From Nostoc punctiforme PCC 73102 (lineage in GTDB: Bacteria; Cyanobacteriota; Cyanobacteriia; Cyanobacteriales; Nostocaceae): DNA of 32,000 nt. Location: the NCBI RefSeq assembly GCF_000020025.1, contig NC_010628.1, positions 7,770,001-7,802,000 on the forward strand, given 5' to 3'. Positions 18,690 to 32,000 of the stretch are shown one piece after another. The first letter of the stretch is position 1. Each line of letters opens with the position of its first letter. The position numbers were made by a program, and so were the translations under genes. The notes below the pieces were generated by a model. It was given only the letters and a program-made list of their open reading frames with translations, was not told the origin of the DNA and did not search any database.

Positions 18690-19685
18690 TTATTTATTTG
18701 AACTGAATTCTGAAATATAAGTTTTTTCTGTAACTCTTATAGAATGATTTAAATTATCTTTAATATATTCAAGGATACTTTGAGCAACATGCTCTGCAAG
18801 CTTAACTGGTACAGCATTCCCTATCATCTGCTCAAGGTCTGTTTTTGTCCCTTCAAAAATAAATGTTTCAGGAAAAGTCTGCAAATAGCTTCTTTCAATT
18901 GTAGTCAATGGGCGCAAATTTTCTGTAACGTTTACTGGATCTTTAGGGTGCTTTTTATAGGTTTTAGGAATAGGACGATTAACTCCTCTTACTGTTGGGC
19001 TAGGTTCATCAATACTAAAAATTCCTCTTCTTTGGTAACTTCTTGGATGTCTGTAGTAATATTGAATTTCTAATTTATTTCCCAGATAATCTCTAATGGT
19101 CATTGGCTTGTCTGCCAACCTTTTTTTCAGGTAAGGTTCCAGACCTTCGTCTTTTCCTTGTAACTCTCCAAAGCAAAAAAATCTTTTTCGCTTTTGAGGG
19201 ACACCGCACAAACTCGCATCCAAAATTATTTCACTTAAACCATATCCAGTATTTTTGAATATTTGTTTAACCTCTTTATATTTATTACTTTTACGAAATA
19301 AGTCTACGTTCTCTATCAAAAACCACTGAGGAAGAACACTTGTAACTATCTCGGAAAATACAATACTTAAATCTCCTCTTCCTAAATTTTCATCGCGTTT
19401 GCCTGCGCTAGAGAAGTCTTGGCACGGTGGTCCGCCAATAATAATTTCAGGACATATTTCTCTAAAAATTTGATAGTTTTTCCTTAAATTATTAAGATCA
19501 TAATCAAAAATTTCATGGCTAAAGTTTTTTTGATAAACATCTATAGCTGGTTTCCAATTATCAAATGCTGCTACAATATTAAAACCAGCATTTTGAAACC
19601 CTAAAGATAACCCTCCACAACCAGCGAAAAGGTCTACAACTCTAAGTGAAGAGTTTTTGGTATAATCTTTATATTTTTCTTTCAT
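18690..19685 (-). CDS. DNA (cytosine-5) methyltransferase
   Basis: All the diagnostic motifs are present: I DLFAGCGGLSLG, IV GGPPCQDFS, VI LIENV, VIII QKRKRFF, X GNAVPV. Confidence 0.95.
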   Translation of the reverse strand: MKEKYKDYTKNSSLRVVDLFAGCGGLSLGFQNAGFNIVAAFDNWKPAIDVYQKNFSHEIFDYDLNNLRKNYQIFREICPEIIIGGPPCQDFSSAGKRDENLGRGDLSIVFSEIVTSVLPQWFLIENVDLFRKSNKYKEVKQIFKNTGYGLSEIILDASLCGVPQKRKRFFCFGELQGKDEGLEPYLKKRLADKPMTIRDYLGNKLEIQYYYRHPRSYQRRGIFSIDEPSPTVRGVNRPIPKTYKKHPKDPVNVTENLRPLTTIERSYLQTFPETFIFEGTKTDLEQMIGNAVPVKLAEHVAQSILEYIKDNLNHSIRVTEKTYISEFSSNK

Positions 19686-19689
19686 ACAT

Positions 19690-20790
19690 TTATATGTTTT
19701 TTAATACTTCGTCAAATATCTCTGGATTACTTAAAATAATACCATCAAATCTTCTTTCAGGACTTAAGTAATTTTGTCCTCCACCTAAAATAATATTCCC
19801 AATCTCTTCTTTAGTAATTCTAGGTTTAATCAATTCATCACAAATCATATAAGGATGAGTATTTAATCCACTTGATGCAAAAGCTTTATCATTCTTAGTA
19901 TGATACGTCAATATGTCAATTATTGATGCGTATGGTATTTTACCATTTGTGGCAAATTCATATAACATTTTTGCCAGCCATATTACAGTTCGCGTATGAC
20001 GTTGAATACTTTCTGCCCCAATTAGTAATTTTTTTGTAACATCAAAAAATAACCTAGTAAAACCAAAATCACTCCAAATAAATATATCTAAACAATTTTG
20101 GTATAACTTTGATGTTTTACCAACAGTTTTCCATATTGGTTGCATTACTAATGGAGACTGCATTTCTATATGATCGTAAAGTAAATTATCTAGACTCTCT
20201 GTCAATCTTGAAATATAAGGAAGTATATTACTAATACTAATCCAATCAGTAATTTCACTACAAACAGGATCAAGATATTTAAGTATTTGTTCTCTAGAAT
20301 CTTTAAATTTGTCAGCAATACTTAATGCTAGATACACTATGGTATCTGGACGAGTAACAATTTCACAACCATATTTATGATCGGGTAGGCGACAAGTTGA
20401 ATTATCTGGTAATGCTGTTAATTTAATTTCTATGCTACGCAAGCAAATATCACCATTAGAAGTATTTAATGTAACTAAGTCTACTCGTGGTAATCTTCCT
20501 ATAACTAGTTTTCTATAAGGAAGATAATCGCTTTCAAATGCAAAAAATAAGTTAGGAGATAGTGGTGTAATACCAAAAATATCGGTTACACCAATTTTCC
20601 CATGTTTAATCTATAGGTTTTTATCAAGAGTTAAATAGACTAGTTGTAGGCCTTGACAGTGCATATAGCAAGCTAGTGAAGCAGGAAAAGAATTATTAAA
20701 TTGATTTTTCCCCCAACTATTAGCCTGAGAGAAATCTCTGTTAGATTTAGCTAATCCAAAAAGACCAGGTTGTACTGTATTTTGATTCAT
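19690..20790 (-). pseudogene. Type II restriction endonuclease-like gene (partner of the methyltransferase) interrupted by one in-frame TAG
   Basis: My own translation from the ATG at 20790 gives MNQNTVQPGLFGLAKSNRDFSQANSWGKNQFNNSFPASLACYMHCQGLQLVYLTLDKNL*IKHGKIGVTDIFGITPLSPNLFFAFESDYLPYRKLVIGRLPRVDLVTLNTSNGDICLRSIEIKL... The same frame continues into the listed ORF 19690-20442. The amber codon is the complement of 20611-20613. The gene ends 4 nt upstream of the methyltransferase start. The nuclease assignment rests on position only. Confidence 0.6.
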
Positions 20791-23666: not shown

Positions 23667-23972
23667 CTGAATTTCTGATTTTTGGATAAGTGTTGACTCA
23701 AGAAGCAGGGGGAAAGATATTTAAATTACCGTGTCTGACTGGGTTTCAGAGCAAGTAAATTTATTTATGCCCAAAAGTAAAAATATTTATTATGTCTACA
23801 GTACGCTGCGCGAACGAGATGTGTCACACAAGAAATAATACTTCCTTAGTTCAGAACAAATACATTTATGTATGGGGATTTCCCCCCTGCTCCCTGCCCC
23901 TTTTCCTCTTATTGATTGGATTTTCGATTTTTAACTCCGGCACATCTGCAAGACATTTTTTCTGTATTCCAA

Positions 23973-24045
23973 TTAAAAAGCGCTTGGGAGTGTTGCCGTG
24001 TTTCCACCCCAAACGCTTTTTATTTTTAACTTGCTCCTCACACAC
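23973..24045 (-). ncRNA. Putative ~73-nt sRNA, unit 1 (Yfr2-family-like)
   Basis: On the minus strand TGATATTAT (extended -10) sits at -15 to -7 relative to the first G of GUGUGUGAGGAGCAAGUUAA. A 14-bp hairpin follows, with loop GUGGAAACACGGCAACACU, then UUUUU. Confidence 0.55.
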
Positions 24046-24135
24046 GATTAAATAATATCATTGCTTTAATGAAAAGACGATTAAAGTGAGTGACACTTTT
24101 AAAAGTGTACCAACAATCCAATTTTTATATGCAAA

Positions 24136-24208
24136 TTAAAAAATGCCCGGGAGTGTTGCCGTGTTTCCACCCCAGGCATTTTTTATTCTTAACTTGCTCC
24201 TCACACAC
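24136..24208 (-). ncRNA. Putative ~73-nt sRNA, unit 2 (Yfr2-family-like)
   Basis: Same architecture as unit 1, with TGATATGTT as the -10. The stem sequence differs from units 1 and 3 by compensatory changes while the loop is identical. Confidence 0.55.
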
Positions 24209-24295
24209 AACTAAAACATATCACTACTTTTATCTAATGGCAAGTATATTGAGTGACATTTTCAAAACTGCACAAGCAATCCAATTTCTGACCAA

Positions 24296-24368
24296 TTAAA
24301 AAGCGCTTGGGAGTGTTGCCGTGTTTCCACCCCAAACGCTTTTTACTTTTAACTTGCTCCTCACACAC
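24296..24368 (-). ncRNA. Putative ~73-nt sRNA, unit 3 (Yfr2-family-like)
   Basis: Same architecture as unit 1, with TGATATCTT as the -10. The stem is identical to unit 1. Confidence 0.55.
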
Positions 24369-24450
24369 AAATATAAGATATCACGAATTCAATTATAAAG
24401 AAAGTATATAGTATGACACTTTCTCAACCGTACACCTGACAAGCAATAAT

Positions 24451-25995
24451 TTAGTGTAAAAAGTGACGTACACCAGTTAAAACCATCAGCAAACCCAGGT
24501 CGTTAGCAGCTTTGATTGAATCTTTATCGCGCAGGCTTCCCCCTGGTTGAACAATGGCTGTAATTCCTGCGGCTGCGGCTGTTCTCACGGAATCATCGAA
24601 GGGGAAGAATCCATCGCTGGCCAGTATTGCACCTTTGGCTTTTTCTCCAGCTTGTTCTAGAGCAATTTTAACTGATCCGACGCGGTTCATTTGACCAGCG
24701 CCTACTCCTAGTGTAGTGCGATCGCTTGTCACAACAATGGCATTCGATTTAACGTGTTTGCAAACTTTCCAAGCAAACAGCAATTCGGCTAATTCGCTGT
24801 CGGTGGGTTGACGTTCGGTGACTACTTGCCATTGACTAGTATCAGCAACAATGTCATCGGCGGTTTGGACAAGAAAACCACCTGCGATCGCTTTCACTGT
24901 ATCTTTAGGGCCACTGCTCAAATCAGCTAGAGTCAAAACCCGCACGTTAGATTTCTTAGCCAGGATTTCTTGAGCTTCGGCTTCACAACTTGGTGCAACC
25001 ACGCATTCTAAAAATGTTTTGGTTAACTCGCTAGCTGTAGCCGCATCAATCGGACGGTTGAGTGCGACAATTCCACCAAAGGCAGAAGTAGAGTCAGCGT
25101 TAAAAGCTTTTTTGTACGCTTCAGAAATACTGCTTCCCAGCGCCGTACCACAGGGGTTTGTATGTTTGATAATCGTTGCGGCTGGAGTATCAGTGAATTC
25201 AGCAATAATTCGGCGTGCAGCTTCTAAATCAACTAAATTATTGTAACTAAGTTCTTTACCTTGGAGTTTCGTCGCGGCTGCCCATCCCGTTGGAGTAGTA
25301 CCAGTTTGATACCAGGTGGCGGGTTGATGAGGGTTTTCGCCGTAACGCAGAGATTGTAATTGTGTACCGCTAAGGGTGTACTGCTGTGTATCTGCGAGAT
25401 AAGATGCGAACTGACAAGTCAGCGCTTGCGCTATCGCTTGATCGTAACTAGCAGTGTGCGAAAATCCTTTTAAGGCCGCCTTTTGCCGAAACTCTAGGGA
25501 TGCTACACCGTTATTTTGGCGCAATTCCTCCAAATACTCGTCATACTGTGCTGGGTCGCATAATACAGCCAGATGTGCAAAGTTTTTCGATGATGCCCTT
25601 AACATAGCTGGGCCACCGATATCAATTTGTTCAACAGCTTCTAATAATGTTACCCCTGGTTTAGCGATCGTTTCCTCAAAAGGATATAGATTCACCACCA
25701 CTAAATCAATCGGGCGAATTTGGTTATTTTCTAAATCTGTAATATCTTGGGGAACATCTCGCCGCGCCAAAATTCCGCCATGAATCCGGGGATGTAGGGT
25801 TTTGACTCGACCACCTAAAATTTCTGGTGAACCTGTGTAATCTGCAACTTTGGTGACAGGGAGTCCCGCATCTTTGAGTGCTTGGGCTGTTCCCCCACTG
25901 CTGATTAAATCAAAGTCAAATTCTTCAACCAAGCTACGGGCTAGGTCAATTATACCAGTTTTGTTAGATACACTCAGCAGGGCTAGACGCGCCAT
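24451..25995 (-). CDS. purH: Bifunctional AICAR transformylase / IMP cyclohydrolase
   Basis: The N-terminus MARLALLSVSNKTG... and the C-terminus ...LTGVRHFLH are typical of PurH. The ATG at 25995 is preferred. The ORF is open up to 26046. Confidence 0.95.
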   Translation of the reverse strand: MARLALLSVSNKTGIIDLARSLVEEFDFDLISSGGTAQALKDAGLPVTKVADYTGSPEILGGRVKTLHPRIHGGILARRDVPQDITDLENNQIRPIDLVVVNLYPFEETIAKPGVTLLEAVEQIDIGGPAMLRASSKNFAHLAVLCDPAQYDEYLEELRQNNGVASLEFRQKAALKGFSHTASYDQAIAQALTCQFASYLADTQQYTLSGTQLQSLRYGENPHQPATWYQTGTTPTGWAAATKLQGKELSYNNLVDLEAARRIIAEFTDTPAATIIKHTNPCGTALGSSISEAYKKAFNADSTSAFGGIVALNRPIDAATASELTKTFLECVVAPSCEAEAQEILAKKSNVRVLTLADLSSGPKDTVKAIAGGFLVQTADDIVADTSQWQVVTERQPTDSELAELLFAWKVCKHVKSNAIVVTSDRTTLGVGAGQMNRVGSVKIALEQAGEKAKGAILASDGFFPFDDSVRTAAAAGITAIVQPGGSLRDKDSIKAANDLGLLMVLTGVRHFLH

Positions 25996-26178
25996 TGATC
26001 GATTCCTTAAAAGTAGGCTAGAAGCGAAGGATCTCAAGTTTTGCATAAGCCTTGGTTCAGTTCAAGACCATTAGAAATAATGGCGTTAATAACTATCTGA
26101 CCATCACCTTTCTCAATTAAGACTGCTATAAGTGGCAGGTATTGTGCCAAGGCGACATCTATTCTTCGTCTTCTTCTT

Positions 26179-26238
26179 CCTCCATAATATCTAATTCACT
26201 TATGTAATCCTCCATAATATCTAATTCACTTAATGTAA
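26179..26238. repeat. 30-bp tandem duplication (CCTCCATAATATCTAATTCACTTA shared core)
   Basis: The cores lie at 26179-26202 and 26209-26232. The second copy contains the stop codon of the 273-aa ORF. Confidence 0.85.
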
Positions 26239-27047
26239 TTAATATACTCTTCATGATATTCTCGCTGCTCTAAAAGCTTGTCTACTCCATCAATATTAAT
26301 TTTCTTTAAAACCTCTCTTGCAACGTTCATAGCTTGTTTTTTCATTATAAGTTTATTTTTATTTGAGGAAAATTCTAATAATCCTTCTGCCACTAAAGCA
26401 TTAATTATATCAAAATCAAATCCATTCCAACAGTTAACACCAGTAAAATTTTCTTTAGACTTTTCACGATTATTGTTAAGGTACTCATTATGTTGATCTA
26501 CACTCGAAAGGTATATAATCATGAGATATAAAGGTTTAATGACTGCATAATGTTCTCGAAAAATTCTTAAGCTTTCTTGTTTTATTTCAAATTGATCTAC
26601 AAGATTACAAGCTTGACTATAAGCGTCTCCTTTAGTATTACAGAACGAAGTTTTTTCTTGTAAGTCTGGTTCTTTAGTACACTCTGCTATAAAACTTTTG
26701 CCAAAAATATCTGATTCGGTAAGTTCAAAAACAGTAATTTTCCAATCTTTTCTATTTTCACTGAGTACCTCTGTTTTATTTGCCAGCAATTTTTCATTTT
26801 TTGCTTGTTTTTTAGCTTTATTTTCTAACAGCACTTGTTCGCGTTCTGTTTGTTCTCTAGTCTGTTTGCTTTCATAAGCATCATCAGGAATATTTAGCTT
26901 TTTATTAACCTCGTCCCAGAATTGACTATCTTTTGCATAGATACCTTTTTTAGTCAAGCTATCAATAAATTCTTGACCACAGACTTTAAGAGCATTCTTT
27001 TTCAATGCTGGGAAGTTAGTAAATGCCTCAAAATTATTCTTATCCAT
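26226..27047 (-). CDS. Hypothetical protein, Lys/Glu/Asn-rich, encoded in very AT-rich DNA
   Basis: A 273-aa ORF with no catalytic motif that I recognise. The C-terminal segment WNGFDFDIINALVAEGLLEFSSNKNKLIMKKQAMNVAREVLKKI resembles a small helical domain I recall as DUF6429-like. That recollection is unverified. Confidence 0.5.
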   Translation of the reverse strand: MDKNNFEAFTNFPALKKNALKVCGQEFIDSLTKKGIYAKDSQFWDEVNKKLNIPDDAYESKQTREQTEREQVLLENKAKKQAKNEKLLANKTEVLSENRKDWKITVFELTESDIFGKSFIAECTKEPDLQEKTSFCNTKGDAYSQACNLVDQFEIKQESLRIFREHYAVIKPLYLMIIYLSSVDQHNEYLNNNREKSKENFTGVNCWNGFDFDIINALVAEGLLEFSSNKNKLIMKKQAMNVAREVLKKINIDGVDKLLEQREYHEEYINYIK

Positions 27048-27207
27048 TTTTGGTTTTTAGAAAAAATTAAAATTTACATTATTAGTTATATTTGTAAATT
27101 TATATTCATTAATATTCCCCTGTATCTTTTCAAAAGTACACATCATCATATAAATTATTTATGTAATAAATCTTAAAAAACTATTGTAAACGTAAAATAT
27201 ACCCATC

Positions 27208-27236
27208 TTGACAGATTAGACACATTTAAGATATTA
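27208..27236 (+). promoter_or_regulatory. Candidate sigma70-type promoter for the large operon (TTGACA - 17 nt - ATATTA)
   Basis: A consensus -35 at 27208-27213 and an A/T hexamer at 27231-27236. An AAGGA Shine-Dalgarno-like sequence sits at 27308-27312, upstream of the ATG at 27320. This is pattern evidence only, in AT-rich DNA. Confidence 0.3.
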
Positions 27237-27319
27237 AAAATATTGAGTCCATTTGCTGAGACTGTAAAGTTCAAGCAGATGAAGCAGTCGTAATACTGAA
27301 AATTACAAAGGAAATAATT

Positions 27320-30300
27320 ATGCCTTCACAAGGTACTGGCGCTAACGTTGACCCGCGATCGCTTAAGCCGTCTATTGACCTCGCTACAGTCATAGAGTTA
27401 CTTGCTCAAGCTATAGATCCTAGCAGTAATCAGGCAAATCATAACCAGCTAAATCCTAAAGGTATGCAGCTGTTTGAATTTGATGACAAGCAAAATAAAC
27501 GACTGAGAATAAGTACTTCAGCCGTTATGTATCGGCTATTTGCACAACCTAAATTTAAAGAAGCTTTTAACCCTGCTCCTGGCGGTGGGTTTATTCAAAA
27601 CTTATCGATGCCAGCAAAAGGTAATAAGTCGCGCGTTGGTGGTTGTTTGAGTGATGGTAATGCCACAAAGTTACCTGGTGCGGTAGATAGATTAATGGCT
27701 GCTATTGACCAAGCACTTAATATTGCTGTACCTTCCGAGAGCTTATTATCAACATTGCTGTTAGATAAAGCTGAACAGCAACTCAAACATCTTGCTAAAA
27801 AAGCAGGTACGACTTTCCAGAATATACCCAATACTGCCAATCTCGTACACCTAGCATTTCAAGCTGGAGATACAAAGGATAACAAGTCTGTGGCGACAGT
27901 TATTTCTGCACGCGAACGAGTTGAAAATACTGATTATTTTGAGCAAATGTGCAGTGCTGCCGCGCAATATTTGAAAGACGAACGTGACAACGATGAAGAT
28001 GATGTGGATTCATCGATCGCAACTTTGGAAGAGGAAAAAAATCGATATGATAGCCAAATACAGCGTTTTTTAAATTTCATAGACGACGAAGCATTATCAC
28101 GCGTCCGATTGACAATTAGCTTTCGGATTATGGAGGCGATCGCAGAAAATGCCCGCTCAAGTAATGACCCAGATTACCAACTTTTAGTAGAGTATGTCAA
28201 TCGAATACTCATTCTAGTTGAATCTGCTAAGGAAGAAGGCTATACGGTTGATTTAATGACTCATTTCGGTAGTGCAGCTGAGTTCGACTTGGCAGATGAA
28301 CTTAGCAAAGCGACCTTTTATTATTGTCTAGCTGTTTGGCCTGAGTGGAAAACTCAAATTTTCGAGCAAAAGACTAAAAATCAAGTAGAGCGTGAAGTAA
28401 GTTATCGTTTTCGAGTCAATGGGCAAAATCCAGAATTAGGCAAACCTGCTTTTGAAGTACGACTCGATCAAATTAGAGAATATTTACTGAGTAATGATGA
28501 ATCTTCCTTACAAAAACCTTGGGAAATTTGTCGTCGTTTAGCTCAACTGATCTTTTTGGCAGTAGTCGTTCCCAAAAACGACGAGGAACCGCTAACTAAA
28601 GAATCACTAACAGATATGGTGAATCAACTCCTAGCAAATTTTCAATCGCAGGGCATAGAAGCTATTCGCCAGACTTTAGACGAATTACAGGAACGCTCTG
28701 AGTCAATGAAATCAATCGCCAAGGCTCTAATGAAAGTACTGCGCGATAGGAGCCAAAAAGTCATATCTCAAGTTCACGATCGCTCCTCACAACAATTCAT
28801 CTGTGTAAAAAGCAGCATCATTAATTGGGATCGCCTAGAAGGGGCAACATTAGGTGTGAGAAAGTTGCTTGTAGAGCCACAAGAAAATACTAGCGAAAAG
28901 GTTGAATGGTTCAAACATATTGAAATTTGTGAGCAACCAGCAAAATCTCTATTTTCGGTTAAGGTTACTGCCGATCTGTCGGAATATGACTTAAAAACTA
29001 AAGATACACTTAGTCAATTACGGGCAAAGCGTATATTACCGCAGAAACTCCTCCAAGTTTGTTGGGTTCCTCGTTCTTGGCAGAAGGGAGAAGATCGTCA
29101 ATGGACTTATGAGCTATCTACAAATGCTTCTCAATTTGCTGGGTGGGCATTATCAGCCGCAATCATAGTTGAATACGATGTTGAAACTGTGAGGCGACGA
29201 GCGAATACAAGAGACTCTGAGGAAAATAAGCAGTATCATGCAGCCGCAGTCACCGCCTTTGCTGTGTTAGTTTACTGCTGTTTGTGGCGGATTATTAGAC
29301 GATTACAAAAATGCGAACAGGAAACATCGGTTGACTTTACAACCTTAATGCTACGACTGCAAGAAACAGGAAAACAACTAGATGATGATAAAGACAAGAG
29401 CGGTGATGCTTACGTTTACGCAGCCGCCCAAACTTTAGAAGCCATACTAGGTGAAGATACCCCGATCCGAATGCAGGGACTTATTTTAGATAATGTGGTG
29501 AAACAAACCAAAAAAAACCAAGATTTTATTAAATCTGGTACTTTTAAGGCGTTTTTAAGTGCGTTTCCACTTTGCATTAGTAGCCCAGATTCTCATTCAG
29601 CCCCCAAGATTGGTTTAATTTCCTACGCCAGCCGTCCCTGTAACGAGGGAAATTTTCCCAATGATAGTGAAAAGGCTTATCTTTTTCTCACTCAAAGTTA
29701 TATTGCTACAGCCGTTAGTGAACCGTTTATAGGTTATGAACTTAAAAGAGAGCGGATGCAGTCTGATGTGCTTGATTCTCCAGAACAGCTGAAAACGCAA
29801 CGCCTAGTTCAAGAAGAAATTCGTCACCTCAGAGCTAAAGAATGTCAGCACATTATTTTATTAGCTCATGCCTATGGCGATCGCCGCATTAATCGAGCCG
29901 CAGATAACAATTCTTCTTTAATACCTACAGAATTTTTAGAAGCAGTCTTTCAAACGTTTCCTGATATCAACATTTATCCAATGATGCGGGATGTATTTCC
30001 GGCTACACGCTTGCGCGAACGAGGTTACAGTGAAGCGGCATTTGAAATTTTGCAAGCTGGAGATCATTCAGATTTTCAGCGATCTGTTAGGGCAGATTAC
30101 TTTCGTGATTTAATTCCGGTTTATACTTTTGCCACACTTCATGCTATTCAAGCAGAAGAGCGCTTACAATCTGGTTTCTGCATTTATTTTTTAGTATCGG
30201 ATGGAAAAGTTAGCAATATTAACTGGACTGAACGCGCTCGTCAGCATTTGATTAATCCTGATTCAGACTCTCGTATTCATCCTTGCTTACTAGCTGTACT

Positions 30301-30505
30301 ACGGGGCTTGCATTTTATTGAAGCTGAACGAGGTGTGTACAAAAGTCAACTTAGCCCAGTACTAGATCCATTTAGTTGGATATCGCCTAATACAGTTGAG
30401 GAGGCTGGTGAAGTGAAAGTTCTCCACTCCCGCCGCAAAGGACAGGTATTACTTAATTATCGCGCTGTACTCACCTACGTTTCTCAAGTTCTGCACAGGA
30501 AGTAA
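27320..30505 (+). CDS. Large hypothetical protein (1061 aa) with no recognisable family
   Basis: A long uninterrupted ORF with host-like composition and an SD-like AAGGA upstream. I could find no Walker, nuclease, HD, methylase or helicase motifs by eye. There is one strongly hydrophobic helix (AAAVTAFAVLVYCCLWRII). Confidence 0.8.
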   Translation: MPSQGTGANVDPRSLKPSIDLATVIELLAQAIDPSSNQANHNQLNPKGMQLFEFDDKQNKRLRISTSAVMYRLFAQPKFKEAFNPAPGGGFIQNLSMPAKGNKSRVGGCLSDGNATKLPGAVDRLMAAIDQALNIAVPSESLLSTLLLDKAEQQLKHLAKKAGTTFQNIPNTANLVHLAFQAGDTKDNKSVATVISARERVENTDYFEQMCSAAAQYLKDERDNDEDDVDSSIATLEEEKNRYDSQIQRFLNFIDDEALSRVRLTISFRIMEAIAENARSSNDPDYQLLVEYVNRILILVESAKEEGYTVDLMTHFGSAAEFDLADELSKATFYYCLAVWPEWKTQIFEQKTKNQVEREVSYRFRVNGQNPELGKPAFEVRLDQIREYLLSNDESSLQKPWEICRRLAQLIFLAVVVPKNDEEPLTKESLTDMVNQLLANFQSQGIEAIRQTLDELQERSESMKSIAKALMKVLRDRSQKVISQVHDRSSQQFICVKSSIINWDRLEGATLGVRKLLVEPQENTSEKVEWFKHIEICEQPAKSLFSVKVTADLSEYDLKTKDTLSQLRAKRILPQKLLQVCWVPRSWQKGEDRQWTYELSTNASQFAGWALSAAIIVEYDVETVRRRANTRDSEENKQYHAAAVTAFAVLVYCCLWRIIRRLQKCEQETSVDFTTLMLRLQETGKQLDDDKDKSGDAYVYAAAQTLEAILGEDTPIRMQGLILDNVVKQTKKNQDFIKSGTFKAFLSAFPLCISSPDSHSAPKIGLISYASRPCNEGNFPNDSEKAYLFLTQSYIATAVSEPFIGYELKRERMQSDVLDSPEQLKTQRLVQEEIRHLRAKECQHIILLAHAYGDRRINRAADNNSSLIPTEFLEAVFQTFPDINIYPMMRDVFPATRLRERGYSEAAFEILQAGDHSDFQRSVRADYFRDLIPVYTFATLHAIQAEERLQSGFCIYFLVSDGKVSNINWTERARQHLINPDSDSRIHPCLLAVLRGLHFIEAERGVYKSQLSPVLDPFSWISPNTVEEAGEVKVLHSRRKGQVLLNYRAVLTYVSQVLHRK

Positions 30506-32000
30506 TGGAATCATCCTTTCTACAACAAGCCTCTATTTGGGGGCAGATATTTGAAATTGCTGTTAAACGCGGTGTTTTACAACAGTTGATTCACAGAAAC
30601 TTACTGTTGAACGATCATCCTGTTTTCCAGCTTTGGCAATCTCACAAAAATGCAGATGTCTCCCACCAACTGGTGAAAGCATTCAAAATAACAGATCCCA
30701 ATCACAAAGAATGGGTAGAAACAATGCTGCGTCATCTGCTGGTACTTGGCTATGGTTTAGGTTGGACAACAATGCGTGAATGTCTCCACCACAGTCAAAT
30801 TAAACAACCTAAACTAGAAGCAATTTGGTGTCCATTGACATTGCCAGGGCAGCAAATGCAACGAGATGAAGAAAAAGAAGAGACAGCAAAAGCATTTCAA
30901 GAAACTTTCAATATACCAGGGAAACCAGATGAGAACTTAGTCAACCGAGGACAACCAGCCAGAGCCGATTTTATTTTATGGCTGTCCAACGAATTTAGTT
31001 CCCACAGAAACACAGATAAAGATGAAGTAATACCCTCTAAAGACTTTAAAAATGTCTTCTCCCAGCCAAATGATCTAAAGCACAAAAAAATTGAGAATTT
31101 AATTCTCTGTTTGGAATTTTCGTATAACGCACCCATCAAATTTGCAGATTTTAAAAATGAAGCTCCTCACACAGAAGAAATAAGTCGTTATGCACGTTAC
31201 ATGGAATCACGGGGGGTCTTCTCTAGAGTTTGTGCAGAGGTTGAGGGTGAAGAATTTTCTCTCTCTAAAAGGCTGGAAAGTTTTCTGTCAGCATTTAGCG
31301 GTCAAGATAAACCATTATTCAAGCTCTGTCAGTCATCATCTTATACTGAGCGCCTGATTCATGTGTTACGCAAGTGTAAACGCTTAGAAGGAAGTTGTCA
31401 TGCTAGAGCGATCGCTGTCACATCCAATGGTATTGAAAGTCTTGCTGCTCAATTCTGGGGTGTGGAATCTGAACCAGATACTAGAGCCAAGTTAATGAAA
31501 TCTTTGGGGCAAGCATATTGCAAGGCTAAACATTCAGATGATGATGTGCCGCTCGATCTAGATGCAGAAATTCTTTTGGTGTTCAAGAAGCTCTTAGGAG
31601 GACTACCGTCTGCTTTTAAAGAACAAGCAAAGTCTCTAGCTGAAAAACCGCCTTTAGGTCAATACTCCCACTTTCTCTTTCATGAAAATGTGACGGACTT
31701 TTACAACCCAATGGGTGAAATTAGCAAGGATGAGGCGATCGCATCTATTGAAGACCACAACGCATTACATGAGTTTTTTGGTAGCGACCCAGTTACACAA
31801 ATTGCTAATTTTGTCAATCAAATCAATCCTAACAAGGAAACAATTCCTCTGCGACAAGTACACGAAGCAGCAGTTTTTGTCGGTCTGAGTGCTGCTCAAG
31901 TCGGTAAAATTAACGTCCTAGCTTTGGAAGGAAATCCGGGTATTGGTAAAACTACTGCTGTGATTAAATTTCTTAAACAGCAGTCTCAAGGCTTCTTATT
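30505..32000 (+). CDS. Large hypothetical P-loop NTPase, 5'-partial view (at least 498 aa, continues beyond the window)
   Basis: This ORF is absent from the supplied track because it has no stop in the window. I translated it from the ATG at 30505 (MESSFLQQASIWGQIFEIAVKRGV...) with no stop through 32000. Its ATG overlaps the upstream TAA (TAATG). A Walker A motif, LEGNPGIGKTTAV, is encoded at 31930-31956. Confidence 0.75.
   Translation, partial: MESSFLQQASIWGQIFEIAVKRGVLQQLIHRNLLLNDHPVFQLWQSHKNADVSHQLVKAFKITDPNHKEWVETMLRHLLVLGYGLGWTTMRECLHHSQIKQPKLEAIWCPLTLPGQQMQRDEEKEETAKAFQETFNIPGKPDENLVNRGQPARADFILWLSNEFSSHRNTDKDEVIPSKDFKNVFSQPNDLKHKKIENLILCLEFSYNAPIKFADFKNEAPHTEEISRYARYMESRGVFSRVCAEVEGEEFSLSKRLESFLSAFSGQDKPLFKLCQSSSYTERLIHVLRKCKRLEGSCHARAIAVTSNGIESLAAQFWGVESEPDTRAKLMKSLGQAYCKAKHSDDDVPLDLDAEILLVFKKLLGGLPSAFKEQAKSLAEKPPLGQYSHFLFHENVTDFYNPMGEISKDEAIASIEDHNALHEFFGSDPVTQIANFVNQINPNKETIPLRQVHEAAVFVGLSAAQVGKINVLALEGNPGIGKTTAVIKFLKQQSQGFL

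Follow-up and report, generated by a model that had tools for sequence, protein, structure and literature searches.

In the DdmDE system, a catalytically inactive prokaryotic Argonaute (pAgo) carrying 5′-phosphorylated DNA guides places the helicase-nuclease DdmD on the non-target strand (10.1101/2024.05.10.593530). In ApsAB, for which antiplasmid activity has been demonstrated, an Argonaute-like protein with an essential lysine in its MID domain works with a helicase-nuclease, and homologues occur in beta- and gamma-proteobacteria and in cyanobacteria (PMC11096173). The predicted pPIWI-RE triad has been connected to R-loops by Burroughs et al. (PMC3702460), and Pseudomonas stutzeri without PIWI-RE shows raised sensitivity to ciprofloxacin (PMC10991935). 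Here we describe a pair of adjacent genes, A and B, from a 32,000-nucleotide (nt) stretch of Nostoc punctiforme PCC 73102 (contig NC_010628.1, positions 7,770,001–7,802,000; hereafter 'the window', to which coordinates refer). A probably encodes a highly divergent Argonaute-like protein and B encodes a large superfamily 2 (SF2) helicase, and with moderate confidence we propose that the two form a module defending against invading DNA. The pair parallels DdmDE, ApsAB and the pPIWI-RE triad in kind, although the membership tests run for each failed, and a full-text literature search returned no description of the A/B family (its coverage is incomplete, so that an earlier description is possible).

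Linkage and distribution of the gene pair

The two genes lie on the same strand and overlap by a single nucleotide, as follows.

27320–30505, plus strand: gene A, an open reading frame (ORF) call with an ATG start, 1061 amino acids (aa)
30503–30507, plus strand: A/B junction TAATG, with the A stop codon TAA at 30503–30505 and the B start codon ATG at 30505–30507
30505–32000, plus strand: 5′ part of gene B, aa 1–498 of 1318, with ~2.46 kb further outside the window

The last base of the A stop codon doubles as the first base of the B start codon (30498–30510 reads AGG AAG TAATG GAA), and the B frame is open from 30505 to the window end (498 codons). These coordinates agree with a preliminary description of the window, made from its sequence alone, which had drawn attention to the TAATG overlap of two long same-strand ORFs and to a second ORF leaving the window shortly after a Walker A motif, GNPGIGKTT, at 31930–31956. 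Extension through 100%-identical Logan contigs gave a full-length B of 1318 aa, identical to the NCBI entry 'helicase-related protein [Nostoc punctiforme]', and the identical A protein is present in 49 blocks of public assemblies.

To place the pair in a wider context, one genome per species was scanned with a B alignment (185,579 species), which returned 156 relatives, and 80 loci were examined. In almost all of these, spanning at least five phyla or classes, A lay directly 5′ of B and in the same orientation, and the association proposed from a single strain extends well beyond it. Both genes were intact in 59 of the 80 loci; among these, 20 junctions overlapped by 1 nt, 13 overlapped by 4 nt and 6 had a gap of 2 nt, such that 39 of the 59 were no more than 2 nt apart. 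Translational coupling of A and B is not a matter of chance, and the data support the two genes being one co-inherited, translationally coupled unit. Across the 80 loci, gene conservation was confined to A and B, with no recurrent neighbour.

Hosts of the pair included many cyanobacterial orders, Methylococcales, Chromatium (Chromatiales), Propionivibrio, the Burkholderiales genera Massilia, Rubrivivax, Methylibium and Malikia, and a metagenome-assembled genome (MAG) of the Chloroflexota. Distribution was patchy even within the Nostocales. Translated searches (tblastn) with A also gave matches on four plasmid records (from Cupriavidus, Acetobacter and two Acinetobacter). On the plasmid of Acinetobacter sp. 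PK01, an A-like gene of 1198 aa (22% identity) lies 5 nt ahead of a B-like gene of 1328 aa, and the alignment of the latter's product with the B profile runs from one end to the other (E = 1e-242).

Not all copies were complete. One gene was split or truncated in 15 of the 80 loci, ~6 of them cut by contig ends, and true disruptions (insertions or an A–B deletion fusion) were seen at loci L010, L028, L029, L036, L041, L042, L049, L067 and L077. The fusion, at L049 (9155–13249), is a 1365-aa ORF that joins A-profile positions 555–833 to B-profile positions 195–1286 through an internal deletion, and is probably a decayed copy. A was undetected in 6 of the 80 loci, namely two at contig starts, three with degenerate B remnants and one in the Leptolyngbyaceae. 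In the last of these, the MAG contig DAIDHW010000001.1 (loci L076 and L093), an intact A (~110–129 kb) and an intact B (~440–463 kb) lie 330 kb apart among housekeeping neighbours; it is the sole genome seen with A and B unlinked, and its A stop codon overlaps a cation-efflux gene.

Gene A: predicted fold and conserved residues

At the level of sequence, A matched no family in Pfam, NCBIfam or PADLOC, and nothing among Protein Data Bank (PDB) sequences at E ≤ 10, whether searched as a single protein or as a 109-sequence profile, in line with the preliminary description of a first product without recognisable motifs. Pfam searches of 46 A-family members gave nothing recurrent, and the nine most divergent full-length relatives were also without a Pfam domain. 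A word-index search with A recovered 141 clusters, all labelled 'hypothetical' in NCBI/UniRef except for two 'CHAT domain' labels; a third word-index search, with the A profile, added no further relatives; and an exhaustive profile search of 1.84 billion representatives yielded 337 A relatives. Identity as a CHAT protease (PF12770, a domain with a His/Cys dyad) was rejected, there being no CHAT match in the 46 members at E ≤ 0.1.

The predicted structure replaced this view of a featureless protein with an Argonaute/PIWI-like one. A template-free AlphaFold2 model built from the 109-sequence alignment (mean predicted local distance difference test (pLDDT) score 83.1, predicted template modelling (pTM) score 0.82) was compared with the PDB using Foldseek, and the best 35 matches were all Argonaute or PIWI proteins, with 29 matches at E ≤ 1e-3. 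These included RsAgo (the best, E 1e-6), SIWI, Hili, MIWI, hAGO1-3, an Asgard Ago, SPARTA short pAgos and AfAgo, a protein of ~400 aa composed of MID and PIWI only that aligned to the A model over ~470 columns with a template modelling (TM) score of 0.44 on the target. The next-best folds after the Argonautes were NurA and endonuclease V, both of which are grouped with PIWI in the RNase H-like clade. From the Argonaute-only top matches, the C-terminal ~500 residues of A are therefore predicted to form a MID–PIWI module, and A is probably a highly divergent Argonaute-like protein. Two regions were delimited within this module.

29327–29599, plus strand: MID-like region of A, aa ~670–760, with R679, Y700, Q719–G720 and K738 as a candidate 5′-end pocket
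29600–30502, plus strand: putative PIWI (RNase H-like) region of A, aa ~760–1061, delimited by the secondary structure of the model and the alignment

Across 24 divergent members, R679, Y700, Q719–G720 and K/R738 were invariant or near-invariant, even in relatives of 18–22% identity; the few other residues surviving at such distances were N367–G368, R772–P773 and those of a C-terminal motif described below. In the model, the stretch bearing R679, Y700, Q719–G720 and K738 has a strand-helix-strand-helix order and stands directly before three long RNase H-like strands. Its spacing, Y-x18-Q-x18-K, in our reading resembles the Y-K-Q-K pocket of Argonaute MID domains, with position 704 being a variable Gln, and by analogy A may bind a guide through this MID-like pocket.

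For the PIWI-like region, the secondary-structure register of the 24 divergent members showed no conserved aspartate or glutamate in strand 1 ('IGLISYASRP') or strand 4 ('IILLAHAYG'), at the ends of which the first two catalytic aspartates would be expected. On this evidence A resembles the inactive, sensor-type Argonautes, among them DdmE, ApsB, long-B and short pAgos, and is probably catalytically inactive as a slicer. Near the C terminus lies a conserved motif, LRGxH(F/Y)xExE, in which H998 is invariant and E1001 and E1003 are conserved. A candidate His/Cys site composed of H844, H850 and C954 was rejected, as these residues vary in divergent members.

Gene B: an SF2 helicase with a family-specific N-terminal domain

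The following features were located in B, partly beyond the window end.

31930–31956, plus strand: motif I (Walker A) GNPGIGKTT, aa 476–484; LEGNPGIGKTT is invariant in 111 homologues
outside the window: motif II MVDELAGDG (aa 689–697), motif V TSSGARGVS (aa 911–919) and motif VI QLIYRGRG (aa 944–951), invariant in 111 homologues
30505–31899, plus strand: N-terminal domain of B, aa 1–~465, family-specific and strongly conserved, ~470 aa before the Walker A motif

Searches of the window part of B and of full B against Pfam, NCBIfam and PADLOC returned Helicase_C alone, at aa 845–936 of the full protein (Pfam; 27.1 bits against a gathering cut-off of 23.5; E 5e-6). An AlphaFold2 model of aa 1–1200 (pLDDT 85.4, pTM 0.82) gave 357 Foldseek matches at E ≤ 1e-3, and the best 50 were all SF2 helicases, led by MLE/DHX9, the DUF1998 helicase MrfA, Brr2, Lhr and HrpA. 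On the combined grounds of Helicase_C, motifs I, II, V and VI and the Foldseek matches, B is thus a large SF2 helicase/translocase of DExH/Ski2/Lhr-like build. Sequence identity between cyanobacterial and proteobacterial B proteins is 43–45%.

This assignment displaces the two identities that had initially been considered for the P-loop, SF1/Upf1 and STAND/NACHT. The former is ruled out by the SF2 fold and motifs; for the latter, STAND-type Pfam matches were weak and lay over the P-loop (AAA_16 at 9e-5 in one member, below the gathering cut-off; nSTAND3 and NACHT at E 0.04–0.18), and the full protein is an SF2 helicase. DinG/XPD identity was also ruled out, with no conserved cysteine between K482 and D691 in 111 sequences and no XPD or DinG structure among the best 50 folds.

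The N-terminal domain conserves E17, R22, D64, W108, D155, E204-x-S206, H222, E245, K269, K273 and Q276-xxx-Y280. The preliminary description had pointed to a weak D...E pattern here (RADFILWLS ... LILCLEFSYN) as a possible degenerate REase-like core. The residues themselves stood up well: D155 is near-invariant at a predicted strand start, in 'PARADFLLWLS', E204 is invariant and S206 near-invariant in the following strand, 'LCLEFSYN', and D155, E204, S206, H222, E245, K269, K273 and QxxxY are all kept in the Acinetobacter plasmid copy. Moreover, the helix-strand-strand-strand-helix order of the domain in the AlphaFold2 model, together with QxxxY, recalls RecB/Cas4-type PD-(D/E)xK nucleases, and D155 and E204 occupy the strand positions expected for such a core. 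The proposed nuclease is unconfirmed, however: the canonical PD-(D/E)xK lysine position is occupied by Ser206, PDDEXK and Cas4 Pfam models had no match in 26 B members, hhalign comparison of the B N-domain profile with the nuclease domain of E. coli RecB and with a YqaJ protein gave a probability of ~0.1%, and a PDB sequence search with the same profile yielded nothing meaningful. Because of the serine at the lysine position, the missing PDDEXK/Cas4 matches and hhalign values at the level of noise, nuclease activity of this domain is a hypothesis to which we give roughly even odds, and the domain may be either nuclease-derived or a module binding the partner or DNA.

Comparison with described systems

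PADLOC-DB 2.0.0, searched at E ≤ 1, gave zero matches for A, the window part of B and full B (the presence of DdmDE models in that release is unconfirmed). The earlier suggestion that the pair matches no named system therefore stands for membership, but not for kind, given the parallels with DdmDE, ApsAB and the pPIWI-RE triad.

With DdmDE of Vibrio cholerae, the pair shares a two-gene make-up, an Argonaute-type protein (inactive in DdmDE, probably so in A) with a large SF2 helicase effector, location in islands and a patchy distribution. However, ddmD precedes ddmE, whereas in the pair the Argonaute-like gene comes first; DdmE, a 'long-C' pAgo, has ~690 aa compared with 1061 aa for A; and in DdmD the helicase is N-terminal (Walker A Lys55), with a PD-(D/E)xK nuclease at the C terminus (10.1101/2024.05.10.593530), whereas B places a 470-aa domain before its Lys482 and shows no (D/E)xK motif that could be recognised in its C-terminal part. 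The best 50 Foldseek matches of the A and B models included neither DdmE nor DdmD.

ApsAB of E. coli ST38 is similar in combining a helicase partner with an Argonaute-like protein that is undetectable by BLAST and carries a MID Y-K-Q-K pocket (PMC11096173), to which A has a candidate counterpart. ApsA-like proteins differ from B in the early position of Walker A (GTGSGKTH, ~aa 45) and in their C-terminal PD-(D/E)xK domain, the helicase gene comes first in that system, and ApsB-like proteins are shorter (~700–800 aa) than A (1061 aa). Two ApsA-like and two ApsB-like proteins (PMC11096173 supplement), compared over their first ~400 aa with the A and B profiles by hmmsearch, gave negative bit scores. 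An ApsAB-like pair and the A–B pair occur together in Nostoc sp. LPT (L067), Nostoc sp. B(2019) (L036) and Lyngbya aestuarii BL J (L053), and the two are therefore distinct systems.

The predicted triad of pPIWI-RE, DinG and a restriction endonuclease (REase) described by Burroughs, Iyer and Aravind in 2013 resembles the pair in its divergent bacterial PIWI module (~1000 aa, including an additional region at the N terminus), which shares an operon with an SF2 helicase, in its overlapping gene termini and in a patchy spread of the horizontal-transfer type that includes cyanobacteria (PMC3702460). The nuclease-fold function also encoded in the triad has a possible counterpart in the pair. Its strict gene order, REase(ZnR), DinG, PIWI (PMC3702460), contrasts with the two genes and leading PIWI-like gene of A–B, and the Cys-rich Fe-S insert of DinG is not found in B, which has a DExH/Ski2/Lhr-type fold. 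Models of DUF3893/RNaseH_pPIWI_RE, pPIWI_RE_X and MID_pPIWI_RE had no match at E ≤ 0.1–1 in 55 A members, and no separate REase/Zn-ribbon gene is conserved around the pair.

Long-B and short pAgo systems (BPAN and SPARTA/SPARSA/SPARDA) and the cyanobacterial long-A pAgo with ACE1 (Cas4 family) share the logic of an Argonaute and a co-encoded effector, but their Argonautes are detected by Pfam Piwi and act with NADases, nucleases or membrane proteins, whereas A is undetected and its partner is a helicase. Two further plasmid arrangements were observed alongside these comparisons: on a plasmid of the haloarchaeon Halobaculum (L099:545–5498), a Piwi-domain gene is followed directly by a large gene for a 'PD-(D/E)XK nuclease family protein', and on the Hydrogenophilus plasmid pTH1 (L096) a Piwi gene lies near a UvrD-helicase gene. 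Both add to the known cases in which an Argonaute gene neighbours a nuclease or helicase gene.

Genomic neighbourhoods and the rest of the window

Flanking genes of the pair were surveyed at 36 loci (137 genes). Outside Nostoc, neighbourhoods were unrelated to each other. Housekeeping flanks included glyS, rmlD, a mur ligase and glycosyltransferases; defence or mobile flanks included Type I restriction–modification (R-M), HEPN, ResIII, GajB-like, IetA-like and DUF4143/AAA_14 genes. Two integrases and helix-turn-helix (HTH) regulators lie near the pair in Massilia timonae; in Methylomonas sp. MS20, the pair is bounded by HEPN and prophage recombination genes (RecT/YqaJ/SSB) at one end and by genes for SbcCD, an AAA_13 ATPase, BrxL and PglZ (BREX) at the other; and neighbours on the Acinetobacter plasmid encode HipBA, Fic and a DUF4011 protein. 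Together with the frequent broken copies, this is the picture of a self-contained cassette that spreads horizontally and often decays, and it suggests a conflict system.

Within Nostoc, the surroundings were more uniform. In 26 Nostoc loci, purH lies ~6 kb 5′ of B and three 3′ genes are common, with small genes between purH and A varying. As purH and the three downstream genes are constant, the pair occupies one chromosomal slot within the genus. In the window, the 5′ side of A is arranged as follows.

24451–26046, minus strand: purH
26226–27047, minus strand: gene with a C-terminal DUF6429 domain, 273 aa, guanine-plus-cytosine (GC) content 0.32, between purH and A
27048–27319: AT-rich spacer of 272 nt between the DUF6429 gene and A
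27208–27235, plus strand: promoter-like TTGACA-16 nt-GATATT, ~85 nt 5′ of A and inside the spacer

The pair had been thought to begin right after purH at an AT-rich junction; the AT-rich spacer is there, but the DUF6429 gene stands between. Nor is the site next to purH a variable island as had been envisaged, being one conserved slot in Nostoc, although the small genes between purH and A do vary and some copies elsewhere reside in defence or mobile islands. The DUF6429 gene was seen at 11 Nostoc loci only, and a different, plus-strand gene of 193 aa occupies that place in 12 others; since the two alternate, the purH-to-A interval is a small variable spot. The TTGACA/GATATT site agrees with the consensus at 10 of 12 positions, and the region holds 5 such sites, not above the 3.0 ± 1.7 of shuffled sequences, so that this site is suggestive only as a promoter of A.

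Several further observations concern sequence organisation near the pair. An intergenic tandem repeat (163-nt unit, 2.8 copies, 77% match) occupies 23969–24423, between an HD_3 gene and purH, and a 30-nt repeat occurs twice at 26178–26239, immediately 3′ of the DUF6429 gene. Many independent assemblies with identical A have contig breaks 64–75 nt 5′ of the A start (Logan contigs L001, L002 and L006–L008), which points to differences between strains, or to a repeat, at that junction. Contigs L002 (7610–13160) and L001 (7621–13260) have identical A and B and diverge after a 74-aa minus-strand ORF 3′ of B. In one of them, genes for a response regulator, GST, inositol phosphatase and ApbA come next; in the other, minus-strand genes encode a DEAD/Helicase_C/Cas3-like_C protein, a split DEAD fragment and an ATPase with a BrxC_BrxD domain, and a second defence locus therefore possibly abuts the pair in some strains.

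Elsewhere in the window, two features relate to defence.

1–1146: array of clustered regularly interspaced short palindromic repeats (CRISPR), cut by the left window end, with a 37-nt repeat, GTTTCAATCCCTAATAGGGATTTTGATGAATTGCAAT, and spacers of ~34–36 nt, ~26 kb from the pair
18690–20442, minus strand: C-5 cytosine methyltransferase (331 aa) and HindVP-type restriction endonuclease, GC 0.30–0.35

No cas genes adjoin the array within the window. The HindVP-type endonuclease (250 aa) covers profile positions 92–332 only and is therefore N-terminally truncated, and this low-GC patch probably represents an R-M system in decay that has left its methylase orphaned. Of the three defence-related elements originally listed for the window, the array and the R-M remnant are thus present, but no HNH gene was found among the window ORFs scanned. 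The surroundings of the pair are mostly housekeeping and its GC content equals that of the host, such that the framing of the window as a defence island is weak.

Discussion

Starting from the observed gene pairing, helicase motifs and distribution and from the folds recovered by modelling, we consider it moderately likely, largely by analogy with the systems above, that A and B constitute a two-gene module defending against invading DNA (plasmids, possibly phages), in which an inactive Argonaute-like sensor would be combined with a helicase effector. The preliminary idea of an undescribed defence or conflict module remains plausible for a unit that is patchy and horizontally spread, although the identities of both proteins have been revised. 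As the slicer aspartates appear to be missing from A, it would act as a sensor or targeting subunit rather than as a nuclease, recognising complementary nucleic acid, probably with a short nucleic-acid guide held in the MID-like pocket. A may then recruit or activate B on the bound target, and B, driven by ATP, would translocate and unwind or strip DNA, possibly cutting it through the N-terminal domain or passing the target to host nucleases. More tentatively, and as a possibility that we hold to be less probable than the defensive role itself, the A family could be a separate, hitherto unrecognised deep Argonaute branch beside the classical pAgos, DdmE/long-C, ApsB and pPIWI-RE, with an obligate partner that is a Ski2/Lhr-like translocase bearing a new N-terminal domain rather than a helicase-nuclease; the outcome could be guide-directed, ATP-driven unwinding or stripping of foreign or aberrant nucleic acids, or cutting by a new nuclease chemistry without the canonical lysine.

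A number of points weigh against a defensive, Argonaute-based role. The assignment of A to the Argonautes derives from predicted structure only, and the MID pocket and DEDX site were mapped from secondary-structure register. Pfam models of the Piwi, PAZ, ArgoMid and pPIWI_RE types matched 0 of 55 A-family members, and hhalign of the A profile gave a probability of 0.13% against TtAgo and of 0.11% against a 6-pAgo profile (assembled from plasmid records); we think that the A family escaped annotation because its relationship to Argonautes is invisible to profile–profile comparison. No nuclease is demonstrated in A or B by Pfam or hhalign, and no relatives were found in phage genomes or in IMG/VR viral contigs. 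Many copies of the pair stand among housekeeping genes, the neighbour survey is qualitative as regards defence genes, and the single Nostoc slot near purH and the host-like GC content fit long vertical residence. Finally, guide use, contact between A and B, target type, translocation polarity, nuclease activity and the defence phenotype are all inferred.

Among other explanations, genome maintenance fares best, yet we judge it unlikely that the pair is a maintenance module and not an immune system. Such a function would suit the position near purH kept in 26 Nostoc loci, the match of pair GC to host GC, the many purely housekeeping neighbourhoods (including those of the unlinked intact A and B in the Leptolyngbyaceae) and the strong conservation of B between cyanobacteria and proteobacteria (43–45%), and it has precedents in the PIWI-RE knockout of Pseudomonas stutzeri (PMC10991935) and in the tie of the pPIWI-RE triad to R-loops (PMC3702460). 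A core function would, however, be expected to be more widespread and more stable than a pair that occurs in only 156 of 185,579 species genomes, is patchy in the Nostocales, has frequent pseudogenised copies, and shows cross-phylum transfer, plasmid carriage and integrase-flanked islands.

A second explanation, which we consider rather improbable, is that A is only an RNase H-like, PIWI-shaped scaffold that uses no guide and serves the helicase as a regulatory or DNA-structure-sensing partner; the system would then resemble guide-independent helicase systems, such as Hachiman-type sensing of DNA ends or damage. The lack of a sequence-level link between A and any Argonaute family would fit, as would its low query-normalised TM-scores (0.17–0.24), the partial retention of Y-K-Q-K (an unconserved Gln at position 704) and the ~540 N-terminal residues to which nothing could be assigned. 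Yet the best 35 structural matches of A are all Argonautes, with MID–PIWI-only proteins matched nearly end to end; the residues most conserved superfamily-wide fall in the MID-like stretch; and ApsB and DdmE, although very divergent, still use a MID pocket and guides (PMC11096173; 10.1101/2024.05.10.593530). Least credible, and in our estimate very unlikely, is that the pair works for a mobile element to which it belongs, in the transfer or replication of that element or in its competition with others, rather than for the host, for although there are plasmid copies, integrase neighbours in some genomes and a suggestion of a variable junction in the many Logan assemblies that break 64–75 nt 5′ of A, the pair has no integrase, transposase, replication gene or terminal repeat as a regular companion, is also absent from viral collections and keeps one stable chromosomal slot across Nostoc.

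Pairing of an Argonaute-type sensor with a helicase effector, as in DdmDE and ApsAB, is a recently recognised route of plasmid elimination, and it matters for genetic tractability as well as for the way in which antibiotic resistance spreads. As a module directed against invading DNA, the A–B pair would add a further lineage to this group, with an Argonaute hidden from Pfam, NCBIfam, PADLOC-DB 2.0.0 and profile–profile comparison and with a different helicase architecture, which suggests that censuses based on sequence underestimate both the Argonaute superfamily and its range of effectors. If guide-programmable, the pair would also represent a new DNA-targeting scaffold. Present in the genetically tractable Nostoc punctiforme, in many bloom-forming or symbiotic cyanobacteria and in methanotrophs, it may add to the barriers to plasmid transfer in these organisms.

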